In this document: one piece after another, positions 5,356 to 39,990 of the stretch
Numbering within the stretch: position 1 is the first letter of the stretch
Layout of the letters: the number at the start of each line of letters is the position of its first letter
Translations under genes and position numbers: made by a program
The notes under the pieces: generated by a model
The model's input: only the letters and a program-made list of their open reading frames with translations
Databases searched by the model: none
What the model was told of the DNA's origin: nothing
Virus record (IMG/VR): IMGVR_UViG_3300040801_000790
Location: 1 to 39,990 of that record
Source: a virus
Reading direction: 5' to 3' (one strand)
Length of the DNA: 39,990 nt

Positions 5356-5499
5356 ATGAAATGGTGCAAAAAGAAATCCTCATTCACTTTAGAAAATGTG
5401 ATTAAGAGAGTAAAAGAAATAAACGACAAACATCATTATGATGTGGTAAAGTATTTTAAATGTAAAAAGTGTGTTAAATATCATATAGAAAAGTTATGA
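5356..5499 (+). CDS. Small Cys-containing ORF absent from the track (47 aa)
   Basis: Hand translation gives MKWCKKKSSFTLENVIKRVKEINDKHHYDVVKYFKCKKCVKYHIEKL. ATGA overlap with the next gene. Confidence 0.45.
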   Translation: MKWCKKKSSFTLENVIKRVKEINDKHHYDVVKYFKCKKCVKYHIEKL

Positions 5500-5744
5500 C
5501 TGAATTAGAAATAGAATTTGAAGAATCGCTTACTTTTGTGGAGGATAAAGAATCACAAAACAAGACAATAAGAAAACACCTTGAAAGCGGTCAATTAATT
5601 ACTCCTAGATATGCTGATAGAAAGTATGGTATCATGAGATTGGCAGCAAGGATTAAGGACTTAAGAGACTTAGGGTTAAACATTACAACTACTATGGTAA
5701 GTAGAAATGGAAAAAGATTTGCTGAATATAAATTAGAAAAATGA
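5496..5744 (+). CDS. Winged-helix/HTH DNA-binding protein (82 aa)
   Basis: The motif ITPRYADRKYGIMRLAARIKDLRDLG resembles the HTH family that carries the RLAARI..LR signature. Confidence 0.55.
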   Translation: MTELEIEFEESLTFVEDKESQNKTIRKHLESGQLITPRYADRKYGIMRLAARIKDLRDLGLNITTTMVSRNGKRFAEYKLEK

Positions 5745-6166
5745 TAAACATATTAAACCCAAAAACCCCTATGATAGATAAGATTAGAAACGAGTGGAAC
5801 GCTAAAGTAGATGTACCAATGAATGATAAGCCTACGGTTATACATCGTGACCAAGGAATGTTGATGTTTCATTTAATGTATGAAGAACTATTAGAATTTA
5901 AATACGCTGTTCAAGATGAAGAATTAACCGAGAAAGAAAAGATAGTTTTAATTGCTGATGCTTTGGCTGATGTTCAATACCTATTATTTGGTGCGGTTAA
6001 TCAATACGGTTTACAAGGAGTATGGGATGACATCATGAAAGAAGTACACAGAAGTAACTTAACTAAAATAGTAGACGGGAAGCTACTTAAAAATGATGAT
6101 GGAAAGGTAGTCAAGCAAGAAGGATATAAACCACCTAATTTGAAATCTATAATTTTTGGTAAATGA
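5741..6166 (+). CDS. MazG-like all-alpha NTP pyrophosphohydrolase (141 aa)
   Basis: EELLEF...DALADVQYLLFG...EVHRSNLTKI...GKVVKQEGYKPPNL is the typical acidic-helix and C-terminal pattern of this family. Confidence 0.7.
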   Translation: MINILNPKTPMIDKIRNEWNAKVDVPMNDKPTVIHRDQGMLMFHLMYEELLEFKYAVQDEELTEKEKIVLIADALADVQYLLFGAVNQYGLQGVWDDIMKEVHRSNLTKIVDGKLLKNDDGKVVKQEGYKPPNLKSIIFGK

Positions 6167-6492
6167 AACTATACTCAAAAGAAGACTTCTTAAAAGCTGC
6201 AGAGGAGGGCGAGGTATCCATGATTGATGCGGAACACGTTGTATCTTTGCTTGATGAAGTTCGTAAGCCAGTACCTTTAACGGAGTCTAATATTAGTGCT
6301 TTAGGATTTGAACACAAAAAATCTTACGAACACGACCAATACCATACAAATGTTTTTAAAAAGGGATTTATAAGCGTAGATTTTACTTACGAAGAAGATG
6401 AGTTAGTTGACTTAGAAGCTTCAATATCGGATTGCTATGTATCTGTAAACTTCGAAAAATTAAAAGCACTAAATACTATATTAAATGGATAA
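6163..6492 (+). CDS. Hypothetical protein (109 aa)
   Basis: Coupled ATG ORF. Confidence 0.65.
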   Translation: MKLYSKEDFLKAAEEGEVSMIDAEHVVSLLDEVRKPVPLTESNISALGFEHKKSYEHDQYHTNVFKKGFISVDFTYEEDELVDLEASISDCYVSVNFEKLKALNTILNG

Positions 6493-6605
6493 AGAATTAC
6501 TATGCGACTTCTTTAAGTTCTTTAGAGACAATGGAGAAAATCATATAGGATTAACAATTGAGAAGTTTGTATAGTTGTTTTTGGATAACTATAAAAAGTA
6601 AATTA

Positions 6606-6896
6606 ATGGAAAGACCTAAAGTAGAAAACTACAAAAGAGATAGCAGTAATCCAGTAGTAATAACTAATGATATAAAATCATTCTGTAATGACCAATCTAT
6701 ATATATAGATTACTTAGAAAAAAATCATTCGTATATCAAAGAATTAAAAATTAAATATAAAACTCAATTAAAAACAATTAATGAACTTGTAGGTAATTCA
6801 GAAGATGGTGATACCGCTAAAATACTAGCTGTAAGACGCTTTATAATTTCTTTCATAGATGATTTGGATAAGTTAATTAAAGAAAATAGTAAGTAA
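6606..6896 (+). CDS. Hypothetical protein (96 aa)
   Basis: The track ORF starts at a non-ATG codon (6558). The first ATG is at 6606 (MERPKVENYK...). Confidence 0.55.
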   Translation: MERPKVENYKRDSSNPVVITNDIKSFCNDQSIYIDYLEKNHSYIKELKIKYKTQLKTINELVGNSEDGDTAKILAVRRFIISFIDDLDKLIKENSK

Positions 6897-7028
6897 TCAA
6901 ACCCCACTCTTATCACATGGTAGGGGTGGGTTAAAATAAAGTGAAATAAATGTTGAATAAATACTTAATATACATTATTATTGTAGTGTATTAATCGCTA
7001 GTGCAGAGGCGTAGAAAAATCATTAAAT

Positions 7029-7078
7029 CCATTGCTTAGTAAGGGCTGCACTCCTGAAAAGCAATGGTTTTTTATTTT
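7029..7078 (+). terminator. Intrinsic terminator-like hairpin (CCATTGCTT ... AAGCAATGG followed by TTTTTTATTTT)
   Basis: 9-bp stem 7029-7037 / 7059-7067, with a T-run from 7068. Confidence 0.6.
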
Positions 7079-7112
7079 AAAAGTTACTGGTAAACTTAAA
7101 ACCTTTAATCTT

Positions 7113-7334
7113 ATGGCTAATATAAAACTAGTCTTTCAAGGCACTGAAGAAAGCTCAACAGAAAAAACAGAACTAGAGTGTTTTTTGAATAGTTATGGCA
7201 ATCAAATCACAATATCTTTAATAGACACATCTTGTGGTCAAGATTACAATACACAATTTATATCACTAGATAAAAGCACGGCTATTAAGTTTGCTAAAAC
7301 ACTACGTACTGAAATCAATAAAATACAATCGTAA
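7113..7334 (+). CDS. Hypothetical protein (73 aa)
   Basis: The in-frame ATG at 7113 ([10 protein letters not shown]...) lies downstream of the terminator. The track start at 7032 would run through the hairpin. Confidence 0.55.
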
Positions 7335-8197
7335 TGGCAAGACCTGAAAGAAACAGTGTCGACTACTTCCCTTTTTATTGTGAGGAAGGAGAGAAAATGT
7401 TTTACATCGAACAGACATACGGAAACGATGGTTTTGCAGTCTTCGTTAAGATACTAAGAGAACTTGCAAAAAAGGATTATCACTACTTAAACCTATCGGA
7501 GCAGTCTAGTAAAATGTTTCTAGCTGCAAAGTGTCGGGTAAATATTGAAGTGCTTGAAAGCATAATAAAAGACCTTGTGATGCTAGGTAAGTTTGACAAG
7601 ATGTTATGGGAAGAAAACAGCGTAATATGGTGTCAATCATTTATAGATAGTATTAAGGATGCTTATAGTAAGAGAAATTCAAACTGTATTACTTATGAGG
7701 GTTTGTTACAACTTTTGAGGGGTTTAGGGGTACGGAAACCCCGAAAAGAAACCCTTAAAGGGGTCGATAATCCACAAAGTATATTAGAGTATATTAAAGA
7801 AGATGAAAGAAAAGTAGATAACAAGAACGAAAAGAAAACATATAGAAAATTCGCTCACTTATCTTTATGTTTAGAAGATTTCGACAAGCTGAACAAAGAC
7901 TACTCGATAAAACAAATAGATTCAATTTTAGATAGTATAGAGAACTACAAGAAAAACACGCAATACAAATCGCTATACCTTACTGCTAAGAAGTGGTTAG
8001 AAAGGGAACACCCAAACAAAGTTCTTAAAGGCGAAACAAGTAAGAGTAGTTATAGTTTTCCTATGGGTAGATTTGAAACAAAAGAGCAATTCGATGAATG
8101 GGAAATGATGGTTAAATTCTCGTATGAGAAAAGAGGTGTTAAAGTTCCTTACGATGAATACATAGAAAACAGAATTAAAATAGAATTGAATGAGTGA
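7334..8197 (+). CDS. Replication initiation-associated protein, DUF4373 (Lin1244/Lin1753)-like N-terminal domain (287 aa)
   Basis: The N-terminus [38 protein letters not shown] matches my memory of the DUF4373 signature. It sits directly upstream of the primase-helicase. Confidence 0.55.
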
Positions 8198-10055
8198 TTT
8201 CTTTAGTTGGGATTTAATAGACCTTTCAAAAATAAAAGGGTCAAGTGGTGAGGTTGTGTCACTATGTCCAATATGTTCACACACAAGAAAAAAGAAGTCT
8301 GATAAATGTTTGGGGGTAAACCTTGATGCTGGTTTAGCGCATTGTTGCCATTGTGGTGCTAAATCAAAAAGGAATATAGAGGAAAAGGTTTTTGAGCCGA
8401 AGGAATATGTTATTCCAAAATGGAAAAATAACACCAACCTACCAGACAAAGTAGTTAACTGGTTTAAAGACGAAAGAAATATCTCTCAAAAAACACTTAT
8501 TGACAATAGTATTTCTTACGGCATGGAGTGGATGCCACAAACACAAAAAGAAAGTGGAACTATACAATTTCCATACTTAGCAAAAGGGAAGGTTATCAAC
8601 GTTAAGTACAGAACCGCACAGAAGCATTTTAAGCTATGTAAGGACGCTCAAAAAATACTTTATGGTGTTGACCACCTAAAAGGAAAGAAAGTCGCTTATT
8701 TCGTAGAAGGAGAGATTGATAAATTAAGTTTTTACGAGGCTGGTATTTACAATGTTGTAAGCTGCCCTAATGGTGTTGCTTTATCAATGGATGAGAAGGC
8801 TAGGTTTGAATCGTCAGGACAGTTCAATGATAACAACGTTTTGAACCTAGACTACTTAACTGATTCTATGCAATACATAGACCATGTTGAAAAATGGATT
8901 CTATGTACAGATAAAGACGCTGCAGGTCAAAAGCTTCAAAGGGAACTTATAAGGAGGTTTGGTGCTGAAAACTGTGAGATATTAGATTTGAAAGGATATA
9001 AGGACGCTAATGAGTTATTAGTAAAGGAGGGTGTAACAGCTTTTGAAAAATTGATAAGTGTGCCAGTTCCAATCGATGGGGTTTATTCAATTGAAGATGA
9101 ATGGGATTATATCCAAGACATAAGAGATAATGGATATAAAAAGGGTAGTGGAATAGGGGTTGAGTCTTACGACAAACATTATAAGTATAGATTAGGAGAG
9201 ATAGATTTAATAGGTGGAATACCTAATCACGGTAAAACAACTTTCGTTGCTTGGGAGATAGTTTTAACAGCTAGGTTATTTGGTTGGAAATGGTGTGTTT
9301 ACTCTCCCGAAAACTACCCAGCTGGTGAGTTGTATATTTCATTGATAGAGACATATTTAAACAAAGATGTGTCAAAACAAGGGTATTTACCAGCGTCAAA
9401 TAGCGACATGGAAGAAGCAAAAGAGTTTATACACAACCATGTTTATGTAATAGATTGGGATGAAGATGATGTTTTAGTAAATCCAGAAATGGTTTTAAAC
9501 AAGACTAAAGAACTAATAAAAAGAAAGGGTGTGAATGCTATGTTAATAGACCCTTGGAATGACTTATATCATGAGTTTAAGGGAGGTGAAAACGATGCTA
9601 AATACCTGCAAAGAATACTATCTCAATGTAGAAGATTTAAAAGAAAGTATAATATTAAATTCATAATAAACGCACATCCAATTGTAAGCAAGATAAGAGA
9701 AAGGGAAGAACACCCAGAGCAAGGGGATAGACAGGCTGTAGTTTGGTTTTATGATGTAGATGGAGGGGCGATGTGGGGTAACAGGATGGATAATTGTAGA
9801 ACAATTTACAGGAATGTAACTGATGAATCATACAGAAATACTACAGAGGTTCATGTTCAGAAAATAAAACATCAAAAATTAGTTGGGTTGCCAACAACAG
9901 ACACGCCAATTAAAATGATTTATAGTGGTAAAAGGTTTCTAATAAATGGGTTTGACCCACTAGACATTAAGGTAGAAAAACCAGATTATGTACAAAAAGA
10001 CATATTCCAAAATCACTCAATAGAAGATTTTGAAAACGAAGATTGCCCATTTTGA
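8190..10055 (+). CDS. Bifunctional primase-helicase (Zn-ribbon + TOPRIM + P-loop helicase, 621 aa)
   Basis: CPICSH..-..CCHCG zinc ribbon. TOPRIM motifs [10 protein letters not shown] and CTDKDAAGQ. Walker [11 protein letters not shown]. Walker B-like MLIDPWND. Confidence 0.85.
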
Positions 10056-10056
10056 T

Positions 10057-10215
10057 ATGAACCCATTCGAGCAAAAAATAATACTAGACAAGCTATCTGA
10101 TTTAGAATCAAGATGGAAAATAAAGATATGGAATCAAGACGTTAATAAGATTGAAGATAATAAATCCAAGCATTCAGTTTGGTTGGAAAAGGAGTTTGAA
10201 ATAATTTGTAAATAA
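10057..10215 (+). CDS. Hypothetical protein (52 aa)
   Basis: The first ATG (10057, MNPFEQK...) comes right after the primase-helicase stop. Confidence 0.45.
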   Translation: MNPFEQKIILDKLSDLESRWKIKIWNQDVNKIEDNKSKHSVWLEKEFEIICK

Positions 10216-10250
10216 TACATCTAAAATTATTTTCTTACATGAATAATAAT

Positions 10251-10258
10251 TACCTTTG
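10251..10258 (+). promoter_or_regulatory. Isolated -7-like box TACCTTTG upstream of the XRE gene
   Basis: Perfect TAnnTTTG, identical to the P6 -7 box, but there is no TTTG at the 20-nt spacing upstream. Confidence 0.25.
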
Positions 10259-10279
10259 GTTAAAGTAAACAATATTATT

Positions 10280-10567
10280 ATGAACATAGGGGAATCAATA
10301 AGAATTTTAAGAAAGCGCGAATCAATGAATCAAGAAGAGTTCGCTTCAAGTGTAGGAATAACTCAATCTTACCTTTCGTTAATTGAGAAAGGACACAAGA
10401 AACCAAGCTTAGAAGTTTTACAACAAATGGCGGATATATTGAATGTTCCTCTACCAGTATTGTTTTGGTTTGGGATAGAGAGAGAGGATGTTCCAGAAGA
10501 AAAAAAGTATGCCTTCGATATTTTAAAGCCTTCAATAGACAAGCTAATTAACGAGGTGTTTAATTAA
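10280..10567 (+). CDS. XRE/Cro-family HTH transcriptional regulator (95 aa)
   Basis: IRILRKRESMNQEEFASSVGITQSYLSLIEKGHKKPSLEVLQQMADIL is a canonical HTH_3 pattern. ATG at 10280. Confidence 0.8.
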   Translation: MNIGESIRILRKRESMNQEEFASSVGITQSYLSLIEKGHKKPSLEVLQQMADILNVPLPVLFWFGIEREDVPEEKKYAFDILKPSIDKLINEVFN

Positions 10568-10606
10568 GGAAAAGGAGTTTAATAAAATATGTAACTAAAA
10601 ATTAAA

Positions 10607-10774
10607 ATGGAAAAAGCAATAGAAGCATTACAAGACAAAATAATTTTCATAACTGGTCAGATAGAATTAACTAAATTAAATAGCCAGTTCGCAAAAGATA
10701 CTGTTTTAAGAAAATGGAAAAGCGATATTGAAGAACTTAAAAAAGCGCAATTAATATTACAAAAATCACAGTAA
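10607..10774 (+). CDS. Small helical ORF absent from the track (55 aa, MEKAIEALQDKIIFITGQIEL...)
   Basis: Hand-translated: 56 codons with an AACTAAAAA leader. The overlapping minus-strand track ORF 10657..10887 is probably spurious. Confidence 0.45.
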   Translation: MEKAIEALQDKIIFITGQIELTKLNSQFAKDTVLRKWKSDIEELKKAQLILQKSQ

Positions 10775-10793
10775 CAACTACAACTAATTAGAT

Positions 10794-11096
10794 ATGACAG
10801 CACGAAAAGAATCACAAAGCAAGCTAGATTGGCTTTACATATTAAGGGATGAGGAAGTTTTAGCTTTAGAAAAATTGGATATATCAAGAAGTCTTATTGA
10901 CTCTACGATGCAGATAGAAGCACTCAATGAGCTTCAAAGAATATATACTGACTTTGCATTTGCGGAATATTTATATTCGTTTGGGAATGGACAATACAAA
11001 ATTGATTACTCTTATTATTCAGATTGGAAAAATAATAAAAAAATAAAAACTATACATTCTGAAATTGAAAGAGAGGAAAACAATAGAAAACTATAA
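10794..11096 (+). CDS. Hypothetical protein (100 aa)
   Basis: ATG ORF with an AACTAA leader. Confidence 0.6.
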   Translation: MTARKESQSKLDWLYILRDEEVLALEKLDISRSLIDSTMQIEALNELQRIYTDFAFAEYLYSFGNGQYKIDYSYYSDWKNNKKIKTIHSEIEREENNRKL

Positions 11097-25145: not shown

Positions 25146-27304
25146 TGGAAGAGGAAATAATATCGGTAACTATTGACAACGCATCTGCTATTAAGAAAAT
25201 TGAAGAGCAGACCGAAGTATTGAGGCAAGTCAATGAGCAAACAAAACAGCTTACTGAGCAAAACAAGGCTTTAACCAAAGCTAATAAAACGTTAGCTGAC
25301 GAGTTTAAGACTGGTAAGATAACACAACAGCAGTTTAATGCAGCGGTAGCAGAAAACAACGCACAAATAACTCAGAATTCAACCAAAATAGCGTTAAACA
25401 AAAAAGAAACTAGCGACCTAACAAGCACTAGGAAGAATCTAATCAAGTCTTTAGACGTTGAGAAAGGAAGTCTTGAAGACATGAGGGCGGAACTATCACG
25501 CCTAACAAGTGCTAGAAACAAAATAAACATCTCAACAGAAGAGGGACGTAAGAAATTCGATGCTTACAACAAGACTATTAAGACGCAGAATGACGCTATT
25601 CTTGATTTAGAAAAGGCTGGAGGTAGTTATCAAAGACAAGTAGGTAACTACGAAAAGGGATTAAATTCTGTTAACCCAGCAATAGGCTCATTTATATCAG
25701 GGATCAAGGCTTCGACCACCGCAGCATTAGCATTTATAGCAACACCATTAGGGGCAGTACTAGCAGCTTTAGGGCTGGCTCTTGCTGCTGTGGCACAATA
25801 CTTTACTAGAACAGAAGAGGGTGCGGAGAAGCTCAGGATAATAACAGCAACTTTAACGGTCGCATTTCAAAAGTTCCTTGATATAGTTGCAAGTATAGGA
25901 GGTGTTATAGTTAAGGCTTTCGAAGACCCACAACAAGCAATCAAAGACTTTTCAAACTTAGTAAAGGAAAATATTAGCGACAGGATAGAAGCTTTGTTTG
26001 ATGTGTTCGGGCTGCTTGGTGAAGCAGTAAAGAAAGCTTTTGAGGGAGATTTTGAGGGTGCTTTAGAGAGTGCTAGTAAAGCTGGAAAGAAATATATCAC
26101 AGAGGTTGATTTGATTGGTAGTGCTGTCGCTGGTGCTACTAAGATAGTCGGTGAAATGAGTGACGAGATTTTAGAGTCTGCAAAAAATACCTCAACATTA
26201 GAACGCGCTTTAATTAATTTAGAAAAGAAAGAAAACGATTTAATACTTACTAGAGCTAAAGCTAACTCCATTGTAAAGGAACAAAACAAGATAGCAGAGG
26301 ACTTAACTAAGTCACTTGAAGAGAGAGAGGCAGCAGCATTAAAGGCTATTGAAGCCGACAACTTAGTCCTACAACAAGAGCTTCAAATAGCAAGAGAAAG
26401 GGAAAGAATCATTAAGGCTCAAAACGAGCAAACAAATAGTTTAGAGGCAGACCGAAAGAGAGAGATTGAAGCAGAAGCAAAAGTATTTGAGTTAAGAACG
26501 AGAAGTGCAGAACTTCAAACAACTTTACAAAACAAGCTTAACACTATACGAGCGCAAGATGCAGCCCAAAAGAAAAAAATATCCGATGAAGAAACGGCAC
26601 GATTGGAGAAAGAAGCTGCGCAACTTGAAGCTAACGCAGAACTAGAAGCCCAGAGAATTGAAAAGGAAAAGCAAACACTCTTTGAATTAGAACTATTCAA
26701 GAAGGAATTAGCAGCACAAGCAATTGAAGACGAGATTATAAGAGCGGACGCGTACGTAGAGATAGAAAGATTTAAACTAGAAAGAATCCTACAAAATGAA
26801 GAGCTTACCAACGCACAAATATTATTAGCAAAAACAAAAGCGGCAGCAGCAGAGAAAAGCATTGAAGACTCAAAGCTGGCTATAACTAAGAAAAGAGAAG
26901 AAGAAAAGCAAGCGGTACAACTTCAAACTGTTAATGCAGTATCTGGATTCCTTAACGAAGCTTTCGGAAACTTCAAGCCTATTGCAATAGCTACGGCTAC
27001 AATAGACGGTATACTTGCAGCGCAGAAAGCATTAGCGCAAGGAGGTATCTTTGGGGCAATAGCTGCAGCAACTATTGGGGTATCAACAGCAAAAAATATA
27101 TCTTCAATTAAAAATACGAAACCAGCTAGCGGAGGGGCTTCACCCTCAACGCCAAGTAGTGCTAACAGCTTAATTAATCAATCGAACCAAACTAATAGGG
27201 TAACAGAAAGCATAGAGAACGCACCTAGACCAGTGGTATCGGTTGAAGAAATAACTTTAAGACAAAGACAAGTAGCAGAAATAAAAGAAACGGCAAGAGC
27301 ATGA
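25145..27304 (+). CDS. Tape measure protein (719 aa)
   Basis: Long coiled-coil (Ala/Glu/Lys/Gln-rich) protein with hydrophobic Gly/Ala segments: AALAFIATPLGAVLAALGLALAAVAQYF and ATIDGILAAQKALAQGGIFGAIAAATIG. Confidence 0.7.
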   Translation: MEEEIISVTIDNASAIKKIEEQTEVLRQVNEQTKQLTEQNKALTKANKTLADEFKTGKITQQQFNAAVAENNAQITQNSTKIALNKKETSDLTSTRKNLIKSLDVEKGSLEDMRAELSRLTSARNKINISTEEGRKKFDAYNKTIKTQNDAILDLEKAGGSYQRQVGNYEKGLNSVNPAIGSFISGIKASTTAALAFIATPLGAVLAALGLALAAVAQYFTRTEEGAEKLRIITATLTVAFQKFLDIVASIGGVIVKAFEDPQQAIKDFSNLVKENISDRIEALFDVFGLLGEAVKKAFEGDFEGALESASKAGKKYITEVDLIGSAVAGATKIVGEMSDEILESAKNTSTLERALINLEKKENDLILTRAKANSIVKEQNKIAEDLTKSLEEREAAALKAIEADNLVLQQELQIARERERIIKAQNEQTNSLEADRKREIEAEAKVFELRTRSAELQTTLQNKLNTIRAQDAAQKKKISDEETARLEKEAAQLEANAELEAQRIEKEKQTLFELELFKKELAAQAIEDEIIRADAYVEIERFKLERILQNEELTNAQILLAKTKAAAAEKSIEDSKLAITKKREEEKQAVQLQTVNAVSGFLNEAFGNFKPIAIATATIDGILAAQKALAQGGIFGAIAAATIGVSTAKNISSIKNTKPASGGASPSTPSSANSLINQSNQTNRVTESIENAPRPVVSVEEITLRQRQVAEIKETARA

Positions 27305-27616: not shown

Positions 27617-28690
27617 ATGAACAATGAAATATTTATTTACTCATTTATAGGAGACGAGGAAAGCGGAGGTGTTACGGCTTCTCAGGTGCATCAATCTTTG
27701 TCTAAAATGGATGGTGATGTAGATGTATATATTAATTCACCCGGGGGAGATGTGTTTGCAGGTCGTACAATCTACCATGCTATTAAAGGCTACTCTAAAG
27801 GAACTGTAACTGCTCACGTAGTAGGTTACTGTGGGTCTATTGCTACTCTAATAGCCTTGGGGTGTAAAAAGATTGTGATGTATGACGGTGCAAAATTCAT
27901 GATACATCAATCTTCTGTTGGTCAAATGAGCGGACGTTCAAGCGAGTTGAAGAGCATGGCAGATGAGCTTGAAGGAATCAATAATGATTTAGTAGAAGCA
28001 TACCATGAGAAGACAGGCTTACCAAAAGAGCAAATCATTGCTATGATGGATAAAGAAACCACAATGAACGCACACACAGCTAAGGAATTAAAGTTTGTAG
28101 ATGAAGTAAAAAAGTCGCTAAAAATTAGCGCAAGATATAATCACGTAATAAATAACAACATGGACAAAAAAGCAAAGTCAGCTAAGGAATTGCTTGCTTC
28201 TTTCACTAATTCTTTTTCTAAAATCTTTGGAGAAGGAGAGGAAGCTGAGGTATCAAACTTAGCTATGAAAACATCAGAGGGTAAAAACATTTACATTGAA
28301 TCTGACGACATTGAGACTGCAGTTGGTAAAGCTGCATACATGGCAGACGAAGAAGGTAATAAGACAGAAGAGTTACTGCCTGACGGGGAATTAAGTCTAG
28401 AAGGTGGTGTAACATTGGTCATTGAGGGAGGAGTAGTTTCTGAAATCAAATCTTCTGAATTGGAAGAGGCTAGAAAAGAAATTGAAAACTTAAAGGCTCA
28501 AATCGAACAAATCACAGCACAAAAAACCACAGCAGAATCTAAAGTTGAAGAAGCCAAGATAGAGATGTTGGCGTTCAAAAAGCAGCTTGACGAATTCCAA
28601 GAGATGCCAGCATTCACATCAAAGGCTAAAATGATAGTTGTAAACGAGCAAAAGAAAAAGGAAAATAAATTAAAATTTGTAAACATTTAA
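27617..28690 (+). CDS. ClpP-family (S14) prohead protease fused to a coiled-coil scaffold-like C-terminus (357 aa)
   Basis: YINSPGGDVFAG, GYCGSIATLIAL (Ser) and MIHQ (His) motifs. The C-terminal half is Glu/Lys-rich coiled coil. Confidence 0.8.
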   Translation: MNNEIFIYSFIGDEESGGVTASQVHQSLSKMDGDVDVYINSPGGDVFAGRTIYHAIKGYSKGTVTAHVVGYCGSIATLIALGCKKIVMYDGAKFMIHQSSVGQMSGRSSELKSMADELEGINNDLVEAYHEKTGLPKEQIIAMMDKETTMNAHTAKELKFVDEVKKSLKISARYNHVINNNMDKKAKSAKELLASFTNSFSKIFGEGEEAEVSNLAMKTSEGKNIYIESDDIETAVGKAAYMADEEGNKTEELLPDGELSLEGGVTLVIEGGVVSEIKSSELEEARKEIENLKAQIEQITAQKTTAESKVEEAKIEMLAFKKQLDEFQEMPAFTSKAKMIVVNEQKKKENKLKFVNI

Positions 28691-28694
28691 TACA

Positions 28695-29672
28695 ATGGCA
28701 GTAACGGTAGATTTAGATTATACATACAATGGGCAAGAGGTCTTTGATGTTCTCTTAGAACCAGCATTACAGAACGAGGACATCTTAAAGATGTTTAACG
28801 TTCTAACAAACATTCGCTCAAAGCGACAAATGATAACAGCCGACCAGTTCGGTAGGGTTTCATTTGCTGGGGATGGTACTTGCGATATTCCAACACCTGT
28901 AGGAAGTACCGTGTTAAAAAACAGAACGCTTGAAACAGGGGAGGTACAAATTTACATGACTCAATGCGCGAGAGAATTTTCCGAAGTTCTAGCAGAAGAG
29001 GCATTGAATACAGGGATTGAAATATATGACCTTTCACAAACTGAAATCAATAACAAAATAATTCTTCCATTGTTACAAGAAGCAGCGAAGAGAGATTTAT
29101 TTTACTTGATAAGCTTCGGTGATTTAGATAGTGCTGATGAGTTACTTTCAGCTGCTCATGGCTTATGGCCGACATTAATTGACGGTGTTGATGACTATAC
29201 TGTTATTGATGCAGAAGTTACATTTAACGCTATACTTGAAGAAGATGAAGCTTTAGAGGCATTTGAAAAAATGTGGTCACTTGCCCCTCAGAAGTTAAAG
29301 GCAATGAAAGACAAGATTGTTCTTGCGGTTACTGGTAGCTTATATGACAACTATGAGAAGTCGTTAAGAGACAAGGGGATAGACAACGGTTGGACAAGAC
29401 TACAAGAAGGTACTCCAAGCTTGAAATTCAACGGAATTGAAGTAGTTCCAATGAGAGGATGGGATAATGGAATCGCAGAATTTGAACTTGATAATCCTCA
29501 CAGAGCATTGTTGACGGTAAAAGAAAATCATTACATCGGAGTTGAGGACATGAAGAAAACAGCTACTCTAAGCTTTTTCTATGATAGAAATTCTCGATTA
29601 AACAAATACGAGGGTAGATACCGAGTAGGTTATCAGTTTGTTCATAAGGATTTACAGGTAATAGCTTACTAA
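28695..29672 (+). CDS. Major capsid protein (325 aa)
   Basis: It lies directly after the protease/scaffold, and its size and composition are typical of HK97-fold capsid proteins. This is a positional inference. Confidence 0.65.
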   Translation: MAVTVDLDYTYNGQEVFDVLLEPALQNEDILKMFNVLTNIRSKRQMITADQFGRVSFAGDGTCDIPTPVGSTVLKNRTLETGEVQIYMTQCAREFSEVLAEEALNTGIEIYDLSQTEINNKIILPLLQEAAKRDLFYLISFGDLDSADELLSAAHGLWPTLIDGVDDYTVIDAEVTFNAILEEDEALEAFEKMWSLAPQKLKAMKDKIVLAVTGSLYDNYEKSLRDKGIDNGWTRLQEGTPSLKFNGIEVVPMRGWDNGIAEFELDNPHRALLTVKENHYIGVEDMKKTATLSFFYDRNSRLNKYEGRYRVGYQFVHKDLQVIAY

Positions 29673-30217
29673 TGGGGTGTAGATTAACAGGAGGTATCAT
29701 CGCAGAGTGCGATGACCTCATACAAATTGGGGGTCTGTATAAGAAATCATGGCTTGGTAACGTAGAAGACTTGACGTTAGATTATGATGAAGACGGTTAT
29801 GTTAATGACATCACCATGGCAGAGTACGGGTTTCTTTACGCTTTTGAAAGCAAGAAGAACAGTTTTAGTGCTGGACACTCCACTGGTGACTCTGGGGCAG
29901 GGGCTAATAAATTCTTTATACACACAGGGGTATTAAAGCTATTCCCTAACACACCAGCAGAAGACGAGGCGATAAAAGACCTACTAGTTTCTAGTGTGTT
30001 TATGATTGTTAAGACTCAGAATGATAAGTTTTTAATCTACGGTGCTAAGAATGGTATGAATGCGGTTACTGAGCAGAACTCAGGACAAGAGGCTGGCAGC
30101 GACATCACAGAGATTGTAACACTTAAGGGCGAAGAGAAAACTAAGCCTTTGAGAATCAAGATAGGCGCGGATGCAGCAGCAACAGAGGCGGTGCTTGATG
30201 GGTTGCTAGAAGCATAA
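29672..30217 (+). CDS. Virion protein, possibly major tail/tube protein (181 aa)
   Basis: Coupled to the capsid gene and followed by a strong terminator, which suggests high expression. The sequence layout resembles small tail tube proteins. Uncertain. Confidence 0.35.
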   Translation: MGCRLTGGIIAECDDLIQIGGLYKKSWLGNVEDLTLDYDEDGYVNDITMAEYGFLYAFESKKNSFSAGHSTGDSGAGANKFFIHTGVLKLFPNTPAEDEAIKDLLVSSVFMIVKTQNDKFLIYGAKNGMNAVTEQNSGQEAGSDITEIVTLKGEEKTKPLRIKIGADAAATEAVLDGLLEA

Positions 30218-30238
30218 TTAAAAAAAACAAAATAAATG

Positions 30239-30278
30239 AAAGGCTATGTATTAATTTATGTAGCCTTTTTGTATTTTT
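30239..30278 (+). terminator. Rho-independent terminator
   Basis: AAAGGCTA 30239-30246 pairs with TAGCCTTT 30261-30268, followed by TTGTATTTTT. Confidence 0.7.
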
Positions 30279-30283
30279 AACCA

Positions 30284-30487
30284 ATGAACCATTCAGAGGC
30301 ATTAGAACTATTCAAACAGATAGACGGCAAGATAAGTTGTAAAGCATCATTTGGAGATGTGGCTAAATTTATTAAGCTTGTTAAGTACGTTAATCAATTT
30401 AAGAAAGTAAAGCTATCTACTTCAAAATGTCAGTTTAGATCAACCATGAATGAGATTAAATTCTTCTTAGAAAAGGTAAATGATTAA
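30284..30487 (+). CDS. Hypothetical protein (67 aa), first gene of the AT-rich cassette
   Basis: ATG ORF immediately after the terminator. Confidence 0.55.
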   Translation: MNHSEALELFKQIDGKISCKASFGDVAKFIKLVKYVNQFKKVKLSTSKCQFRSTMNEIKFFLEKVND

Positions 30488-31079
30488 AATTATACAGATT
30501 TGTTTTGATGAAGAATCAAAAGCTAATTGCTTCAATCATGAGAATGTAGAAGTATTTTTTAACGAAGAAAACCCCCACCCATATTTCGAGAATAAAATAA
30601 TAGCTGACAAAGTTCCTAATATAGAAGCTGATTATATAGGTGTTTTTTCACACGCATTTAAAAAGAAAAGAAAAAAGGATATTGATTTTATAATTAGGAA
30701 AATAAACAAAAATCCTGTTTACTCATTCTTTAGCAATATAAAGGATAAGAACGTGATTAGTCACATGGAGAGCTTACACACAGGCAGCAAAGAGATACTA
30801 AACTATATTTGTTTAAGGATTGGATTAACTCCATCAAACAAGCTTGCACCAATATATCAAAACCACTTTATAGCAAGAAAGGAAATATATAACGATTATG
30901 TGACATATCTAACCCATGCAATTGATTTGATGAATAATGATAAGTGGTTAATTGATAGGTGCAACAAACCAGCTATGAGAACGGGAAAGTACGCAACATA
31001 TACGCTTCATACATTTGTGTTAGAGCGTTTATTTTCAGTATATTGTAAAAACAAAAACATTAAAATTGAAATGATATGA
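30480..31079 (+). CDS. Hypothetical protein, possibly glycosyltransferase-like (DUF4422-like?) (199 aa)
   Basis: Only a weak resemblance: ENKIIADKVPNIEADYIGVFSHAF versus the DUF4422 ...DYVGLCHYRRYF region. Low confidence in the function. Confidence 0.5.
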   Translation: MIKIIQICFDEESKANCFNHENVEVFFNEENPHPYFENKIIADKVPNIEADYIGVFSHAFKKKRKKDIDFIIRKINKNPVYSFFSNIKDKNVISHMESLHTGSKEILNYICLRIGLTPSNKLAPIYQNHFIARKEIYNDYVTYLTHAIDLMNNDKWLIDRCNKPAMRTGKYATYTLHTFVLERLFSVYCKNKNIKIEMI

Positions 31080-31789
31080 AAATCACACACCATTTAAATA
31101 TAATCAATACAACAGCTAAGGTAATCAACGCTAGGACTTACCTAGAGATAGGTGTATGTACAGGTTCTAATATTAACAACGTAAGGATAGGAGCAAAGAC
31201 TGGTGTAGACGTTAACGATATTCGTGGAATAAAGGAAGGTATAGAGATGATTAAATCATCTTCTGATGACTTTTTCAGAACCAATGAAAGGAAGTTTGAT
31301 TTGATTTTTATTGACGGTGACCACTCACAAGAGCAGTCAATGAAAGATTTTGAGAACGCTTTAAAATGCGTGAGTAATAAAGGTCTAATCTTACTTCATG
31401 ACGTCTACCCTCCGAATTTAAAGCACATGGAATTAAACTTATGTGGTGGTGTTTACTTGAATGCTCAGGATATAAACAATAGATTTAAATGCGTTGTGTT
31501 TCCTTATGATTACGGAGTGATGATAGTTAATCCAAGAGTGACAAAAAACAAGAAAACACCTATTTTTGAAGGCAATGACTTCTTAGAGATAAAGGATGAT
31601 GTGTTTAACTATGGTCACGAGGTAAGAGATATTTCAAACTTAATCACAGAGGACAAAAAAAGCTTTGATTTGTACGAAAAATCAGACGAAGAAATTAAGG
31701 ATATACACCAAGAGGTATTCGGAAACAAGCCGAAAGGGAGGTATATAAGAGAAAATGTAATTGCTAAAATTGAAGCCTTTGGAAAATAA
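31076..31789 (+). CDS. Class I SAM-dependent methyltransferase (Methyltransf_24 / O-MTase-like) (237 aa)
   Basis: Motif I YLEIGVCTGSN. The DLIFIDGDHS and LILLHDV motifs are typical of this family. Confidence 0.7.
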   Translation: MKITHHLNIINTTAKVINARTYLEIGVCTGSNINNVRIGAKTGVDVNDIRGIKEGIEMIKSSSDDFFRTNERKFDLIFIDGDHSQEQSMKDFENALKCVSNKGLILLHDVYPPNLKHMELNLCGGVYLNAQDINNRFKCVVFPYDYGVMIVNPRVTKNKKTPIFEGNDFLEIKDDVFNYGHEVRDISNLITEDKKSFDLYEKSDEEIKDIHQEVFGNKPKGRYIRENVIAKIEAFGK

Positions 31790-32321
31790 GATAATAATCA
31801 CAGGTACGGGTAGGGCTGGAACTACATTTCTAGTTCACCTACTTACCCTTTGTGGTGTAGATACTGGATTTAAGAAAGAAAATGCGGACATCTTTATAGA
31901 TAATAAATCCTTTGGAGGGCTTGAATCATCAAGTCACGATCCCTATGTCTTGAAGTCTCCACACTTCTGTGATAAGATTGAAGATTTAAATAGTAAATAC
32001 TTCATTGACTACGTTATAATACCTATAAGAAGCCTAGAAAAGGCTGCCTCATCAAGAATTAGGGTTGGAAATAGCAATGGTGGTTATTGGGAGGCAACAA
32101 GTCAAGTTGGTCAAGAAATTGTTCTTTTAGAAAATTTTTATAAAGCGATTCACTCATGTGCAAAATTAAACATAGATGTTATACTGATTGACTTCGATGT
32201 AATTATGAGTGAAAAGGATGTGTTGTTTGTCACTTTAAGAAAGCCCTTCCCTAAATTAGATTACAACACTTTTATTAAATCTTACGATGAAATTTTTGAT
32301 AAGAGAAAGATTACGCAATAG
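31761..32321 (+). CDS. Sulfotransferase-family-like P-loop protein (186 aa)
   Basis: ITGTGRAGTTFL resembles the PAPS 5'-phosphosulfate-binding loop (G.xRSGTT.L; it lacks the Walker Lys). IIPIRSLEKAASS resembles the 3'-phosphate motif (R-x7-S). There is no ATG before the loop; the track start is TTG. Confidence 0.5.
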   Translation: MLKLKPLENKIIITGTGRAGTTFLVHLLTLCGVDTGFKKENADIFIDNKSFGGLESSSHDPYVLKSPHFCDKIEDLNSKYFIDYVIIPIRSLEKAASSRIRVGNSNGGYWEATSQVGQEIVLLENFYKAIHSCAKLNIDVILIDFDVIMSEKDVLFVTLRKPFPKLDYNTFIKSYDEIFDKRKITQ

Positions 32322-32387
32322 TTAAGCGGTTAGTTAACCGAAACAAAACCAACCTTTAAAAATCTTATCTTAGCGTAAATTGATAAG

Positions 32388-33590
32388 ATGATTAAGATTA
32401 TAAATAGGTCATACAATGATACAAAGGTCGACCAGTCTGCGGAATGGAATGAAAACCTAGGTATACTTAATTTTGGCAGAGGTAACGCTTTCCCTACGCA
32501 TCTAATTAGCGAGATAGAATTTTCGTCTTGTGCAAACGCTTGTTTATCTGCTAAACATAAATTTGTAAGAGGTGGAGGTTTTGAGAATGAGTTTTTAAAC
32601 ACATTTTTAATAAATAGAAGCGAAGTTATTTCTAAGGTTGACAACAAAATAAGTCAAGATTTATCGTTTTTTGATGGTGCTTATGTGCTATTAACATTCA
32701 ATTTTAAAGGTGTAATTAACGAGATAAGACACTTACCATTCGAGAACACTAGAATAGGTAAGATTGATGAATTTGGCAATCCTAAATCATTCAAGTATAG
32801 CCCTAAATGGGGGCATAAAGGGGATGAAGAAAACCCAGATGCTGATTTCATAACTGAATATGACGCATTAAATCTTGATAAAGAATATATATTAGAAAAA
32901 ATAAAAACCACGACAGGAGGCTATAGTGGTCAGGTTGTATATTTGAGTTTTGAAAGACCTTCTAAGAGAATCTATCCTGTTCCATTTTGGTATTCTGCAA
33001 TTAATTGGATAGGTATAGACGCTGCAATATCTGAATTTCACAAAAACAACATTGATAACGAGTTTCTTCTATCATACATGATCAAAATGGTAGGAGACCC
33101 TGATGAGTTGTTAAGAGACGCAGAAGGAAAAGAGACTAAGCAAACTAAGGGGGAAGCGTTTAATGAGTATTTGACCACTCAATTTGCTGGAACAAAAAAA
33201 GGGGGTAAAACTATTACTCTCTGGTCAGATGACTCACAAAACTTTCCATCAATAGAGGCGTTTCCAAACTCAAACAATGAGAAGCTGTTTATAGCTATGG
33301 AGGAATTGACAAAGAAAAACATAGTGCAAGCTTTCGGAATACCTAACCTAATAGCGAACATTGAGACGGCTGGAAAGCTTGGGGGGTCGGATGAAATTAA
33401 CAACGCAGTCGCTTTGTTTAATGGTAATACAGAGATGTATAGAACGTTGCGTGAAGAAATGTGGGAGTTAATACTACAATTCTACAAAACACCATATAAA
33501 GGCGGTGTAAAAATTAAAGAATTTGAATTTAAAAATATAGCAAATGCTAATAACACTGGAGGATTTCAAGGAGCAAGTTCTAATTTCTGA
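32388..33590 (+). CDS. Putative portal protein (400 aa)
   Basis: It is the only portal-sized ORF without another assignment, and it lies directly upstream of a connector-like gene. I recognised no diagnostic motif. Confidence 0.45.
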   Translation: MIKIINRSYNDTKVDQSAEWNENLGILNFGRGNAFPTHLISEIEFSSCANACLSAKHKFVRGGGFENEFLNTFLINRSEVISKVDNKISQDLSFFDGAYVLLTFNFKGVINEIRHLPFENTRIGKIDEFGNPKSFKYSPKWGHKGDEENPDADFITEYDALNLDKEYILEKIKTTTGGYSGQVVYLSFERPSKRIYPVPFWYSAINWIGIDAAISEFHKNNIDNEFLLSYMIKMVGDPDELLRDAEGKETKQTKGEAFNEYLTTQFAGTKKGGKTITLWSDDSQNFPSIEAFPNSNNEKLFIAMEELTKKNIVQAFGIPNLIANIETAGKLGGSDEINNAVALFNGNTEMYRTLREEMWELILQFYKTPYKGGVKIKEFEFKNIANANNTGGFQGASSNF

Positions 33591-34047
33591 TAAGCTACCA
33601 GAAAAGGAAATAATTCCTCACATAAAACACGCTGAGGAAAGGTATTTAAAGTCTACTCTATGTAATGATTTGTACAGAGAGATAAGCGAATCAGTTATAA
33701 ACTGCGACATGGACGCTAAGCAAGAAGAACTTATGACGTTTATAAGACCGTTCTTGATTCAAAAATCATACGTTCGGTATATTTCTTTCAATGGAGTAAA
33801 GGGAACGTCTCAGGGGCTTGTGACCATAACTGGTGACAACACAGCTACACTAACAGACAATCAATTGAACACTATTAAAAAAAGAGCTGAATCTGATAGC
33901 GAGTATTACGAAAATGAATTAATTAATTATTTAGAAAAAAATAAAGAAGTGTTTACTAATTACAACTGTAAAGGGTGTGTGGTTAACAAACAATCATTTA
34001 AAATAACAGCAATAGGCAAAAACCACGAAGGAGGCAAATTATTATGA
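33544..34047 (+). CDS. Head-tail connector (gp6-like) protein (167 aa)
   Basis: The N-terminus MLITLEDFKEQVLIS...IIPHIKHAEERYL resembles gp6-like connector N-termini. Confidence 0.45.
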   Translation: MLITLEDFKEQVLISDKLPEKEIIPHIKHAEERYLKSTLCNDLYREISESVINCDMDAKQEELMTFIRPFLIQKSYVRYISFNGVKGTSQGLVTITGDNTATLTDNQLNTIKKRAESDSEYYENELINYLEKNKEVFTNYNCKGCVVNKQSFKITAIGKNHEGGKLL

Positions 34048-35555
34048 TTTACTATTTAGACAAAGCAAACAAATTAAGGATACCGACAGCCACAGAGGCT
34101 TATGTTCTGGTTAGATTTCAAAGAGAGTGTGGTGAGCATCTCTTTATAGGAACGGTTATAGAGTGTAACGGATACCAAGCAATTGAAGTGCCTATAGACT
34201 CTATTGATTTTGAAAAGAAGGGAAGATGGGAAGTTGATTTCTACGAGCAAGCCAGCGCGGTAAATGAAGATATAGAGTCTGCTTTGTTTATTGGAGATGA
34301 TGAAATTTGGGTAGTACAAAACTCTCCTAGTTCATTACCTATACCACCTTCTAACGATGGGGGTCATGTAATTGAATACGAAGGAGAGGCACTAACTCAA
34401 AGGTCAAAATTAAACTTTATTGGAAATGTAGAGATAACTGATGAGGGAGACACAACACAAGTAAATGTTGGAAAAGTTCCTATTATTACAGAACTACCCG
34501 TAGGAGGTATAGTTGCAGACGCAAATAAACTTTATGTGTTACCTATAGGTGATGATACTATTACTATTGCTGATAGCGGTCATGACAACACTGGTAAATT
34601 GATTGAAATACCTATTATTAAATCGGTAGGTAGTGATGATGATTATACTGCTAATTTAGCGAATAAGAAAGGTATAATTAACATAAATGGAGTTATTGAA
34701 ACAAGTTTATACAACTATACATTTGACCAAGCAAGTAATAGTAATTCAACAAGATATCATACAACAGTTTTAAAAATGCTTAATGGAAACATTATTAGCA
34801 TTACTAACGAAACACAAGAGGATACACAACCAATTGATTATGTTACCCCTCTTGACGAGCCTAGCAACTTCGTTTGGTGGAAGTTTAACACAGGATTTTC
34901 TGGTTCGACAAACTTGTTATGGACTGACGTTATCAGTTCTCTAATAGCTACTAGTGTGGGAGAAGGTAAGCCACTTAACACGGGAGGAGAGGTATTGTAT
35001 GACGGTGTAGATGATGGAATGAAAAATGGTGATGCAGCAATTATCAATTTGTTTGGCTCATTCCCTCTAAACGCAGCAGTTCACACCGTTGTGAAGTTTG
35101 ATGATTTAGGAGGTACAAACGCACCACTATACTTAACTAATACTGGCAATGTAGATCCAGCACTTATACTCTGTGCCGCTAATAGTTCAGGACAACTTCT
35201 CTTCAATTTCAGAACAGACCAATCGCCAACAGATGCTGTGTCAGCGACTAGCACGGAGACCGTCAATAACACTACATACTACGTTGTTAGCTATGTGTTT
35301 AAAACAGCAAGTTCTTTAGACGTTGCTGGTAGTTTCGTTGATGTTTATTTAAACGGTGTATTGACATCAATAGCTGATTTAGACATCTCTTCAATAACTG
35401 ACGCAACGCCATTGTTTAATGAACTTGGGTTAGGTTATCGCGACATCAATGGTGCTTCAAGTTTCTATGACAGCACATTAAGAGACGTGTTGATTCAGTC
35501 TTCGTTGACTAACCTTCAAGAAAACATGGATTACTTAACCGCAACCTTACCATAA
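34044..35555 (+). CDS. Tail fibre/spike protein with a C-terminal LamG-like domain (503 aa)
   Basis: The C-terminal region YYVVSYVFKTASS...FVDVYLNGVL...YDSTLRDVLIQSSL is LamG-like. Its position fits a fibre. Confidence 0.55.
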   Translation: MIYYLDKANKLRIPTATEAYVLVRFQRECGEHLFIGTVIECNGYQAIEVPIDSIDFEKKGRWEVDFYEQASAVNEDIESALFIGDDEIWVVQNSPSSLPIPPSNDGGHVIEYEGEALTQRSKLNFIGNVEITDEGDTTQVNVGKVPIITELPVGGIVADANKLYVLPIGDDTITIADSGHDNTGKLIEIPIIKSVGSDDDYTANLANKKGIININGVIETSLYNYTFDQASNSNSTRYHTTVLKMLNGNIISITNETQEDTQPIDYVTPLDEPSNFVWWKFNTGFSGSTNLLWTDVISSLIATSVGEGKPLNTGGEVLYDGVDDGMKNGDAAIINLFGSFPLNAAVHTVVKFDDLGGTNAPLYLTNTGNVDPALILCAANSSGQLLFNFRTDQSPTDAVSATSTETVNNTTYYVVSYVFKTASSLDVAGSFVDVYLNGVLTSIADLDISSITDATPLFNELGLGYRDINGASSFYDSTLRDVLIQSSLTNLQENMDYLTATLP

Positions 35556-39711: not shown

Positions 39712-39921
39712 ATGAATAACGAAAATTGGATTGAAAGCAGTAATCCACCAAAACCAAACACACAATGCAAGGCAAAAACACCTGCTGGAACTGATGAAGT
39801 TGGACAGGCTTGGTTTGATGGAAAAAAATGGTGGAACTGGGAACAAGGTTCAAATGTAAAATTTGGATTGAAAGATGGTTGGGTAACGCACTACATTCCT
39901 TTATTTGAAAGAACAGAGTGA
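39712..39921 (+). CDS. Hypothetical Trp-rich protein (69 aa); its 3' end lies in the terminal repeat
   Basis: ATG ORF. The last 48 nt are duplicated at 1..48. Confidence 0.6.
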   Translation: MNNENWIESSNPPKPNTQCKAKTPAGTDEVGQAWFDGKKWWNWEQGSNVKFGLKDGWVTHYIPLFERTE

Positions 39922-39990
39922 GCGTATGTGCTACAACGAGTTCGGGCTATGAGCCTGTACTTGTATGGCTTATAGCCCGTGTTGTAGGTA
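39874..39990. repeat. Terminal direct repeat, copy 2 (identical to 1..117)
   Basis: 117/117 identity with the window start. Confidence 0.95.

Follow-up and report, generated by a model that had tools for sequence, protein, structure and literature searches.

A probably native glycan-tailoring island between the capsid and portal genes in a lineage of uncultured phages

Three settings are known for phage enzymes that act on glycans, namely seroconverting prophages, DNA-glucosylating phages, and, as a recent addition, mycobacteriophages with glycosylated virions. The seroconversion cassettes of temperate phages, such as gtrABC and Oac, encode membrane proteins and lie beside integrase genes or attachment sites; it is the prophage that expresses them. 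Here we describe a cassette of four genes, orf1 to orf4 (positions 30284–32321), located between the gene of a conserved 181-aa protein and the portal gene in the IMG/VR virus record IMGVR_UViG_3300040801_000790, of which the whole stretch of 39,990 bp was analyzed (hereafter the window). We propose, with a probability of roughly 0.45, that this cassette is a native island expressed late in infection that builds a short methylated and sulfated glycan, the acceptor probably being a virion protein. Like the seroconversion cassettes, it is a set of phage-encoded, predicted glycan-modifying genes whose content differs between relatives. Unlike them, it encodes soluble proteins and lies in a late structural operon, and no integrase family was matched among the open reading frames (ORFs) of at least 250 aa of the window.

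Virion glycosylation has been described in mycobacteriophages. As summarized in PMC11600133 (citing Freeman et al. 2023), cluster O phages, for example Corndog, encode an O-methyltransferase followed by three glycosyltransferases, which modify capsid and tail-tube proteins. Cluster F1 phages, for example Che8, are reported in PMC11256854 (citing Freeman et al. 2023) to encode virion glycosyltransferases as well. At the level of the enzyme types named in these sources, the two systems share one or several soluble glycosyltransferases and an O-methyltransferase, with no export machinery in either. The mycobacteriophages infect Actinobacteria, whereas the phage described here is of a Bacteroidota type. 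In addition, its island keeps a constant place between capsid and portal genes, is hypervariable, and includes a sulfotransferase-like enzyme. In the "Gratiaviridae" phages of Bacteroides, too, nonstructural glycan-related enzymes are encoded in the interval that separates the portal gene from the major capsid gene (Benler et al. 2021, PMC8008677), and the portal protein of the window is distantly related to the portals of phiST-like and Bacteroides phages. The window differs from these phages by its smaller genome (~40 kb) and by the absence of a HipA kinase and of a visible tail sheath. For the "Gratiaviridae" block, a modification of the host capsule was put forward by the same authors, as a proposal only.

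The phage genome in the window is complete, at ~39.87 kb, and is either closed into a circle or terminally redundant. Its two ends form an exact direct terminal repeat of 117 bp (1–117 = 39874–39990), and every large ORF is on the + strand. The cassette and its surroundings comprise the following features:

27617–28690, + strand: ClpP-type head maturation protease (Pfam and PHROG hits)
28695–29672, + strand: major capsid protein (Pfam and PHROG hits)
29672–30217, + strand: conserved 181-aa protein (family conserved in relatives, 180-aa family alignment)
30238–30278, + strand: intrinsic terminator (13-bp stem at 30238–30269 and a T-run) closing the operon of the protease, capsid, and 181-aa genes
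30284–30487, + strand: orf1, 67 aa (from the ORF listing; called as a gene in public annotations)
30480–31079, + strand: orf2, 199 aa, putative glycosyltransferase (GT) with a GT-A fold model closest to WbbM (GT111/DUF4422)
31076–31789, + strand: orf3, 237 aa, predicted class I S-adenosylmethionine (SAM)-dependent methyltransferase, Methyltransf_24
31761–32321, + strand: orf4, 186 aa, sulfotransferase-like protein (TTG start at 31761)
32388–33590, + strand: portal protein (phrog_11226, E = 2.5e-57)
33544–34047, + strand: DUF6712 protein (DUF6712, E = 9e-18)

The four cassette ORFs overlap by 8 nt (orf1/orf2), 4 nt (orf2/orf3), and 29 nt, or 11 nt depending on the start of orf4 (orf3/orf4), which fits translational coupling of the four genes. 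The terminator in front of them folds with −14.9 kcal/mol (z = −4.9), and none of 200 shuffled sequences folded equally well. A first-pass annotation made from the sequence had described four tightly overlapping genes behind a strong terminator closing the capsid operon and had quoted the motifs LEIGVCTGSN, DLIFIDGDHS, GTGRAGTTFL, and IRSLEKAASS; the genes, the terminator, and the motifs are all present. Only 66 nt separate orf4 from the portal gene. The terminator scan found no terminator within this gap at the downstream end of the cassette, and promoter-like sites are no commoner in the cassette region than in shuffled sequences. Since it has neither a downstream terminator of its own nor a promoter signal above chance, the cassette is not an autonomous transcription unit.

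Relatives were retrieved from contigs carrying homologues of orf2, orf3, or orf4, from a scan of metagenomes for the portal protein, and from a scan of a genome collection with the orf2 family; they are designated by L numbers. Eight independent related loci with enough flanking sequence share the same frame: protease, capsid protein, ~180-aa gene, terminator, an ORF of 57–74 aa, an orf2-like gene, a variable block, and the portal gene. The variable block contains from none to about ten further genes. The upstream part of the frame (27617–30217 in the window) is syntenic with L003–L006, L010, L016, L022, and L028, and a hairpin followed by a T-run is found directly 3′ of the ~180-aa gene in L004, L005, L006, L010, L011, L016, L022, and L028. 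As the terminator and the slot behind it are kept in all relatives, they do not represent an insertion scar. The islands, with the position of the slot for the small ORF and the terminator in the relatives, are as follows:

L010/L011, island of 0.9 kb: small ORF and orf2-like gene only (slot at 3724–3974 in L010)
Window, island of 2.2 kb: methyltransferase gene (MTase_24) and sulfotransferase-like gene
L005, island of 4.0 kb: MTase_24, two GT2, an orf4-like gene, and a 246-aa protein (slot at 5238–5484)
L022, island of 4.4 kb: MTase_24, two GT2-type genes, unknowns, and a 238-aa protein (slot at 3036–3273)
L004, island of 4.9 kb: two GT2-type genes, unknowns, and a 247-aa protein (slot at 1515–1766)
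L028, island of 6.3 kb: three GT2, a TylF methyltransferase, and unknowns (slot at 2005–2374)
L016, island of 6.7 kb: GT2-type genes and unknowns (slot at 3209–3497)
L006, island of 7.8 kb: GT11, GT2, a protein with Epimerase/GDP_Man_Dehyd domain, two MTase_24, MTase_21, a GT25-like gene (weak match), GT2_4, and an HNH endonuclease (slot at 8599–9000)

Because an orf2-like gene is present in all eight frames and the other genes vary, orf2 belongs to the core of the island, and orf3 and orf4 are accessory. The latter two are patchily distributed among the syntenic relatives, yet they have diverged like core genes. Compared with L005, the identity is 30% for orf2, 34% for orf3, and 44% for orf4, versus 29% for the capsid protein, 32% for the portal protein, and 33% for the protease. 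Across the relatives, orf3 and orf4 share 34–44% identity with their counterparts, and the capsid, portal, and protease proteins 29–39%. From these sequence comparisons, the cassette of the window looks like a reduced island of the L005 type rather than a new import. The islands found at this position are full of glycosyltransferases and methyltransferases and include a sugar-nucleotide dehydratase, which strongly reinforces the glycan tailoring suggested by the first-pass annotation. We consider it highly probable that the slot contains a glycan-tailoring island that is native to this phage lineage and conserved in it.

In a hydropathy scan (Kyte–Doolittle), 37 of 39 island proteins lacked any stretch of sufficient hydrophobicity to cross a membrane, the exceptions being a peptide of 46 aa and a borderline protein of 247 aa in L004. 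The four proteins of the window contain no hydrophobic segments. None of the islands examined was found to encode a flippase, a polymerase, or a membrane transferase.

The position of orf1 corresponds to that of the 57–74-aa ORF found in all relatives, directly upstream of the orf2-like gene. Five of the relatives' small proteins form a clear family with a P-x-W-K-x-A-F motif and CxxC/CxC motifs. Orf1 is without their cysteine pair, and searches of Pfam, PHROG, NCBIfam, and PADLOC returned no family match for it. It has no significant similarity to the small CxxC proteins: with a hidden Markov model built by leaving it out, 311 of 2,000 shuffled sequences scored equally well (p ~0.16). As this is no better than shuffles, only positional equivalence is claimed.

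Three further observations concern the islands. A conserved protein of ~240–260 aa with no Pfam match is encoded just upstream of the portal gene in most of the larger islands (L004 5638–6381, L005 8558–9298, L013 558–1304, L016 7740–8507, L018 1445–2221, L022 6772–7488, and L028 7579–8364); neither the window nor L010/L011 has it. The HNH homing-endonuclease gene of L006 (15733–16185), at the portal-proximal end of the largest island, may drive island turnover. In L009, an orf2-like gene (3–407) adjoins the portal gene on the opposite strand at the end of the contig, and the island may be inverted there.

The AlphaFold model of orf2 (pLDDT 86.6) matched best, in a Foldseek search of the PDB, WbbM (E = 3.9e-5, TM-score over the query [TMq] 0.58), the match being given for the entry 6u4b as such, which contains a GT8 domain as well. 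Other GT-A enzymes came next. On the basis of this model, the product of orf2 is a soluble putative glycosyltransferase of the GT-A type, closest to WbbM. WbbM, the DUF4422/GT111 galactofuranosyltransferase of Klebsiella O2a, is a bifunctional O-antigen polymerase whose N-terminal DUF4422 domain founded the GT111 family, and it works on cytoplasmic glycan intermediates (PMC12269835). It differs from orf2 in that the DUF4422 model of Pfam misses orf2, and no UDP-galactopyranose mutase is encoded nearby. The orf2 family is large: a word-indexed search returned 13 homologues, and the full profile search 913 representative clusters (~900 at 50% identity). Some members are fused to GT2 plus methyltransferase domains, or to GT1-type domains. 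Nothing in Pfam matched orf2 above threshold, and only one of 40 family members matched DUF4422 (E = 0.006). Sequence and profile searches of the PDB sequences with orf2 and its family gave chance-level matches only. The faint glycosyltransferase resemblance pointed out in the first-pass annotation holds up in the fold model, with a sequence-level DUF4422 signal that is nearly absent. A match of orf2 to the "Evf virulence factor" family of Pfam (E = 3.5e-4, below the cut-off) was rejected, being absent in 12 close and 39 distant family members. In L030, a 361-kb Chryseolinea contig, an orf2-family gene (6992–7693) adjoins a gene for an AbiEi-type antitoxin and no polysaccharide locus; the family is therefore not limited to phage islands or to obvious glycan clusters.

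Orf3 matches PF13578 well above the cut-off (E = 2.6e-12, 48 bits vs. 26.3) and has both the SAM-binding motif I (LEIGVCTGS) and a D-x-x-F-I-D-G-D-H segment (DLIFIDGDHS). By these sequence features, it can be regarded as a bona fide Methyltransf_24 SAM methyltransferase, the class I enzyme that had been predicted from its motifs. PF13578 matches all 61 homologues, of which one carries a fused GT2 domain; those closest to orf3 over the full length are encoded in the same island of L005 and L022. A C-terminal extension of ~100 aa is likewise present in the phage relatives. Among solved structures, the one nearest to orf3 in sequence is 6g7d (deposited as "Methyltransferase domain protein"), which we take to be a mycobacterial mannoside 1-O-methyltransferase. 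Judging from this relative and from the neighboring genes, orf3 is probably a sugar O-methyltransferase.

A second TTG codon at position 31779, giving a protein of 180 aa, is the more likely start of orf4: this form is the one in the public annotation and better fits the N-termini of the homologues. These form a family without a Pfam domain, counting at least 247 clusters (more than 240 at 90% identity). In a 41-member alignment, residues G15, T16, G17, R18, G20, T21, T22, E55, K65, P88, R90, and R99 are invariant, A19 of the loop is nearly so, and S98 is conserved in at least 90% of the members. In TPST and bacterial sulfotransferases, the 5′-phosphosulfate-binding (PSB) loop follows the pattern G-x-x-[KR]-[SA]-G-T-T, which the loop G-T-G-R-A-G-T-T of orf4 fits. 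The 3′-phosphate-binding motif of SULT and TPST enzymes has an Arg and, eight residues on, a Ser, as do R90 and S98 of orf4. The AlphaFold model, built on 41 sequences, has a pLDDT of 91.8. Its top PDB matches are mostly sulfotransferases with a TMq of ~0.6 (for TPST2, E = 3.3e-4 and TMq 0.61), including TPST2, TPST1, CurM ST, S4, SULTs, StaL, Teg14, and Stf0, and its matches in BFVD are headed by viral sulfotransferases. Weak matches to Sulfotransfer_3 were obtained for 32 of the 41 family members and to Sulfotransfer_1 for eight, the best member reaching E = 2.4e-4. Residues 11–29 of orf4 align with positions 2–20 of the Sulfotransfer_3 profile, exactly at the PSB-type loop. The likeness to sulfotransferases dependent on 3′-phosphoadenosine 5′-phosphosulfate (PAPS), that is TPST1/2, CurM ST, StaL/Teg14, Stf0, and the cytosolic SULTs (Sulfotransfer_1/3), therefore lies in the fold, the PSB-type loop, and the spacing of the Arg…Ser motif; the conserved Glu and Lys could serve as catalytic base and partner. 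The difference is one of size, orf4 having 180–186 aa, ~60% of the normal length, and scoring below the Pfam thresholds. The fold model and the PAPS-loop motifs, the latter already read in this way from the sequence, make orf4 probably a true PAPS sulfotransferase in a minimal form. The role of sulfotransferases in phages has been described as unclear (PMC10580990).

An unrelated phage from a hydrothermal-vent metagenome (L007), with a Phage_cap_E capsid, a tube_2 protein, and a tape measure, encodes a fusion of GT2 with Methyltransf_24, an orf4-like gene, and a 509-aa GT2. These genes lie at 7592–11060, between the tape-measure region and the baseplate genes. The association of a methyltransferase, a sulfotransferase-like protein, and a glycosyltransferase in virion operons is therefore recurrent.

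We propose the following scheme. The cassette and the portal operon would be expressed jointly and late, with the upstream terminator attenuating the expression. Orf2 would move a sugar from a nucleotide sugar onto a cytoplasmic acceptor, orf3 would O-methylate the resulting glycan with SAM as donor, and orf4, drawing on PAPS from the host, would O-sulfate it; a short, capped glycan would result. The acceptor would most likely be a virion protein, with the products of the two genes just upstream, the capsid protein and the ~180-aa protein, as the candidates. Four points favor such an acceptor. A conserved priming transferase with variable elaborating enzymes is what is expected for a conserved phage acceptor; the orf2-like transferase stands alone in L010/L011; the mycobacteriophage precedent concerns capsid and tail-tube proteins; and no flippase, polymerase, or membrane transferase is available to act on an exported host polysaccharide. 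Taken by itself, the virion as target has a somewhat less than even chance. A bolder reading, in which a hypervariable "viral serotype" island with a conserved priming glycosyltransferase decides which short glycans, here O-methylated and O-sulfated, cover the capsid or some other virion protein throughout the lineage, is doubtful. Bolder still, orf4 might directly sulfate a virion protein, TPST being the top structural match of its model.

The 181-aa protein is a candidate glycosylation target. Its family has an N-terminal M-x-x-C…C-x-D pattern kept across all relatives, and the counterpart in Bacteroides phage BS-TP3 is annotated as "head-tail adaptor". Sequence and profile searches of the PDB sequences with the 180-aa family gave chance-level matches only.

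Several points weigh against the scheme. The position beside the capsid genes is circumstantial evidence for the acceptor, and the virion glycosyltransferases of F1-cluster mycobacteriophages are, according to PMC11256854, located far from the capsid genes. Lipid-linked intermediates of host glycans, on the inner side of the membrane, are an equally conceivable substrate for soluble phage transferases. Orf2 has no recognizable DxD motif and almost no DUF4422 sequence signal. The Sulfotransfer_3 score of orf4 itself is low (E = 0.31, 11.7 bits vs. a cut-off of 27), its profile and that of its family find no solved sulfotransferase in sequence and profile searches of the PDB sequences, and the protein covers only ~40% of a typical sulfotransferase (TM-score over the target ~0.4). 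Some orf4 homologues (L027 and L035) lie in contexts without glycan genes, and no gene for PAPS synthesis was seen in the phage.

As the main alternative, the same native island might act late on envelope glycans of the host, namely intermediates of lipopolysaccharide (LPS), capsule, or another glycopolymer at the cytoplasmic face of the membrane, and thereby mask receptors. Soluble prophage transferases such as TarP indeed modify wall teichoic acid in the cytoplasm. Such masking would exclude competing phages or prevent the loss of progeny on cell debris. Benler et al. (2021, PMC8008677) made their host-directed proposal for a block of "Gratiaviridae" that separates the portal gene from the capsid gene and encodes a glycosyltransferase, an AAA-ATPase, and a HipA kinase, and the island content described here varies like that of bacterial O-antigen or capsule loci. 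On bacterial contigs of the Opitutaceae type, orf4 homologues adjoin LPS-core genes (GT9 heptosyltransferase, GT2, and an MsbA-like ABC transporter). Overall, the gene neighborhoods of bacterial homologues of orf4 and orf2 are mixed and only partly informative. However, the orf2-like transferase is conserved although the islands, and presumably the hosts, differ, and it is the sole enzyme in L010/L011. Moreover, none of the islands encodes a flippase, a polymerase, or a GtrA/B/C-type or other membrane protein. No prophage relatives were found in the portal scan of GTDB genomes, and the phage is probably lytic. As no lysogeny genes were seen, the benefit of modifying host glycans would be limited to the late lytic cycle. 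We consider a host-envelope target rather unlikely.

We also regard as improbable that orf4 is another P-loop enzyme (a kinase or phosphotransferase with a sugar or nucleotide as substrate), so that the island would phosphorylate rather than sulfate. A P-loop kinase fold was the alternative named in the first-pass annotation itself. Nucleotide monophosphate kinases do occur among the Foldseek matches (1uke, E = 6.6e-4), two family members weakly match AAA_18, and the protein is far shorter than known sulfotransferases, with a Pfam score below threshold. However, the loop has a Thr at the position of the Walker A lysine, with Arg18, Gly20, Thr21, and Thr22 invariant, and the invariant R90 and the conserved S98 are eight residues apart. 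The kinases reach a TMq of only 0.40–0.45 with the model versus ~0.6 for the sulfotransferases, and it is the two Sulfotransfer profiles that match 32 and eight of the 41 family members.

The first-pass annotation had interpreted the cassette as an AT-rich moron, horizontally acquired and interrupting the morphogenesis module. This interpretation, under which the cassette would be a recent and independently transcribed insertion, is very unlikely and already largely refuted. The G+C (GC) content of the cassette is 32.4% versus 34.8% for the whole window, with a standard deviation of 2.4% among windows of the same size, 23% of which have a GC content as low or lower. GC at third codon positions is 0.30–0.35, compared with a typical value of ~0.30, and codon-usage z-scores range from −0.6 to +1.6. 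The lowest-GC stretches of the window are elsewhere, near 6300–6700, 3900, and 10500. Of the two sampled lines on which the claim was based, the count of 27 G+C of 60 at 29701–29760 was correct, and that at 30661–30720 is 11, not 12. The local drop in GC relative to the capsid genes exists because these genes are richer in GC than average, above all the 181-aa gene (29672–30217), which is the true compositional outlier (43.4% GC, codon z = −2.1). A strong terminator does precede the cassette, and orf3 and orf4 are both absent from L010, L011, and L016; L022 has no orf4, and L004 encodes at most a marginal Methyltransf_24-like protein (E = 0.042). Conservation with native composition, named in the first-pass annotation as refuting a moron, applies by half: orf2 is conserved, and orf3 and orf4 vary. 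Nevertheless, the terminator and slot are common to all relatives, and orf2 to every one with enough flank. The nearest homologues of orf3 and orf4 are in the same island of related phages with core-like divergence, and L005 retains the relative order of orf2, the methyltransferase, and the sulfotransferase-like gene. The missing downstream terminator and promoter signal also argue against an independent unit.

That the island modifies the bases of phage DNA or makes a small molecule is very unlikely. Three points speak for it: hypermodification of DNA by phage glycosyltransferases is well established (Pyle et al. 2024, cited in PMC12619734); the PHROG families that orf3 matches bear the label "DNA methyltransferase"; and the phage encodes a MazG-like nucleotide pyrophosphohydrolase in its early region (5741–6166; phrog_671, E = 1.8e-22). 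Against it, no match to a hydroxymethylase or thymidylate synthase and no DNA polymerase were found among the ORFs of at least 250 aa, Methyltransf_24 is of the O-methyltransferase type with a nearest solved relative that is not a DNA enzyme, the GT11, Epimerase/GDP_Man_Dehyd-domain, and multiple GT2 genes of the relatives are typical of oligosaccharide assembly, and the island lies within the late structural operon, outside the replication module.

Among 50,697 GenBank phage records, tblastn found no homologue of orf2 or orf4, and a DNA-level search with the region 27617–35555 gave no match. Scans of IMG/VR with the portal protein, as a single sequence or as a 3-sequence alignment, yielded no confirmed loci, and a 6-sequence alignment was too diverged to seed a scan. 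The portal protein is 25–27% identical to those of Cellulophaga and Tenacibaculum Cbastvirus phages and of Bacteroides phage BS-TP3. In BS-TP3, the gene order is protease, capsid protein, ~200-aa protein, one gene, portal, and a ~170-aa gene at the position of the DUF6712 gene; the sole gene in the equivalent slot, gp5, proved unrelated to orf2 or orf4. Metagenome-assembled genomes of Chitinophagaceae, Cyclobacteriaceae, and Ohtaekwangia include, in their bins, phage-like contigs that share the frame, a weak hint at Bacteroidota hosts. The PADLOC defense models gave a single weak match (HEC-02B, E = 0.004), Rfam a subthreshold chance match to a snoRNA, and NCBIfam nothing useful. Elsewhere in the window, a 719-aa ORF contains a strongly A-rich stretch (26100–27300, AT skew 0.36–0.43), and its weak matches to tape-measure-like PHROG families may reflect composition and not homology. 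An antisense ORF of 105 aa (32330–32647, − strand) overlaps the start of the portal gene and is most likely spurious.

A lineage of uncultured phages, with genomes of ~40 kb where complete, therefore keeps a dedicated slot between its capsid and portal genes. At its head stand a conserved terminator and a conserved putative glycosyltransferase; the genes that follow change from relative to relative, much as in a bacterial O-antigen locus. Two large uncharacterized families meet in the island, the GT-A/WbbM-like proteins (~900 clusters) and the minimal sulfotransferase-like proteins (>240 clusters). If its target is the host envelope, it would represent a late-acting receptor-masking system in lytic phages. 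If its target is the virion, glycosylation of virions would extend beyond the actinobacteriophages, with consequences for the interactions of phages with mucus, grazers, and the immune system. Should the virion glycan prove to be O-sulfated, it would provide the first example of a sulfated phage particle, as well as of a virion glycosylation system from phages other than actinobacteriophages.

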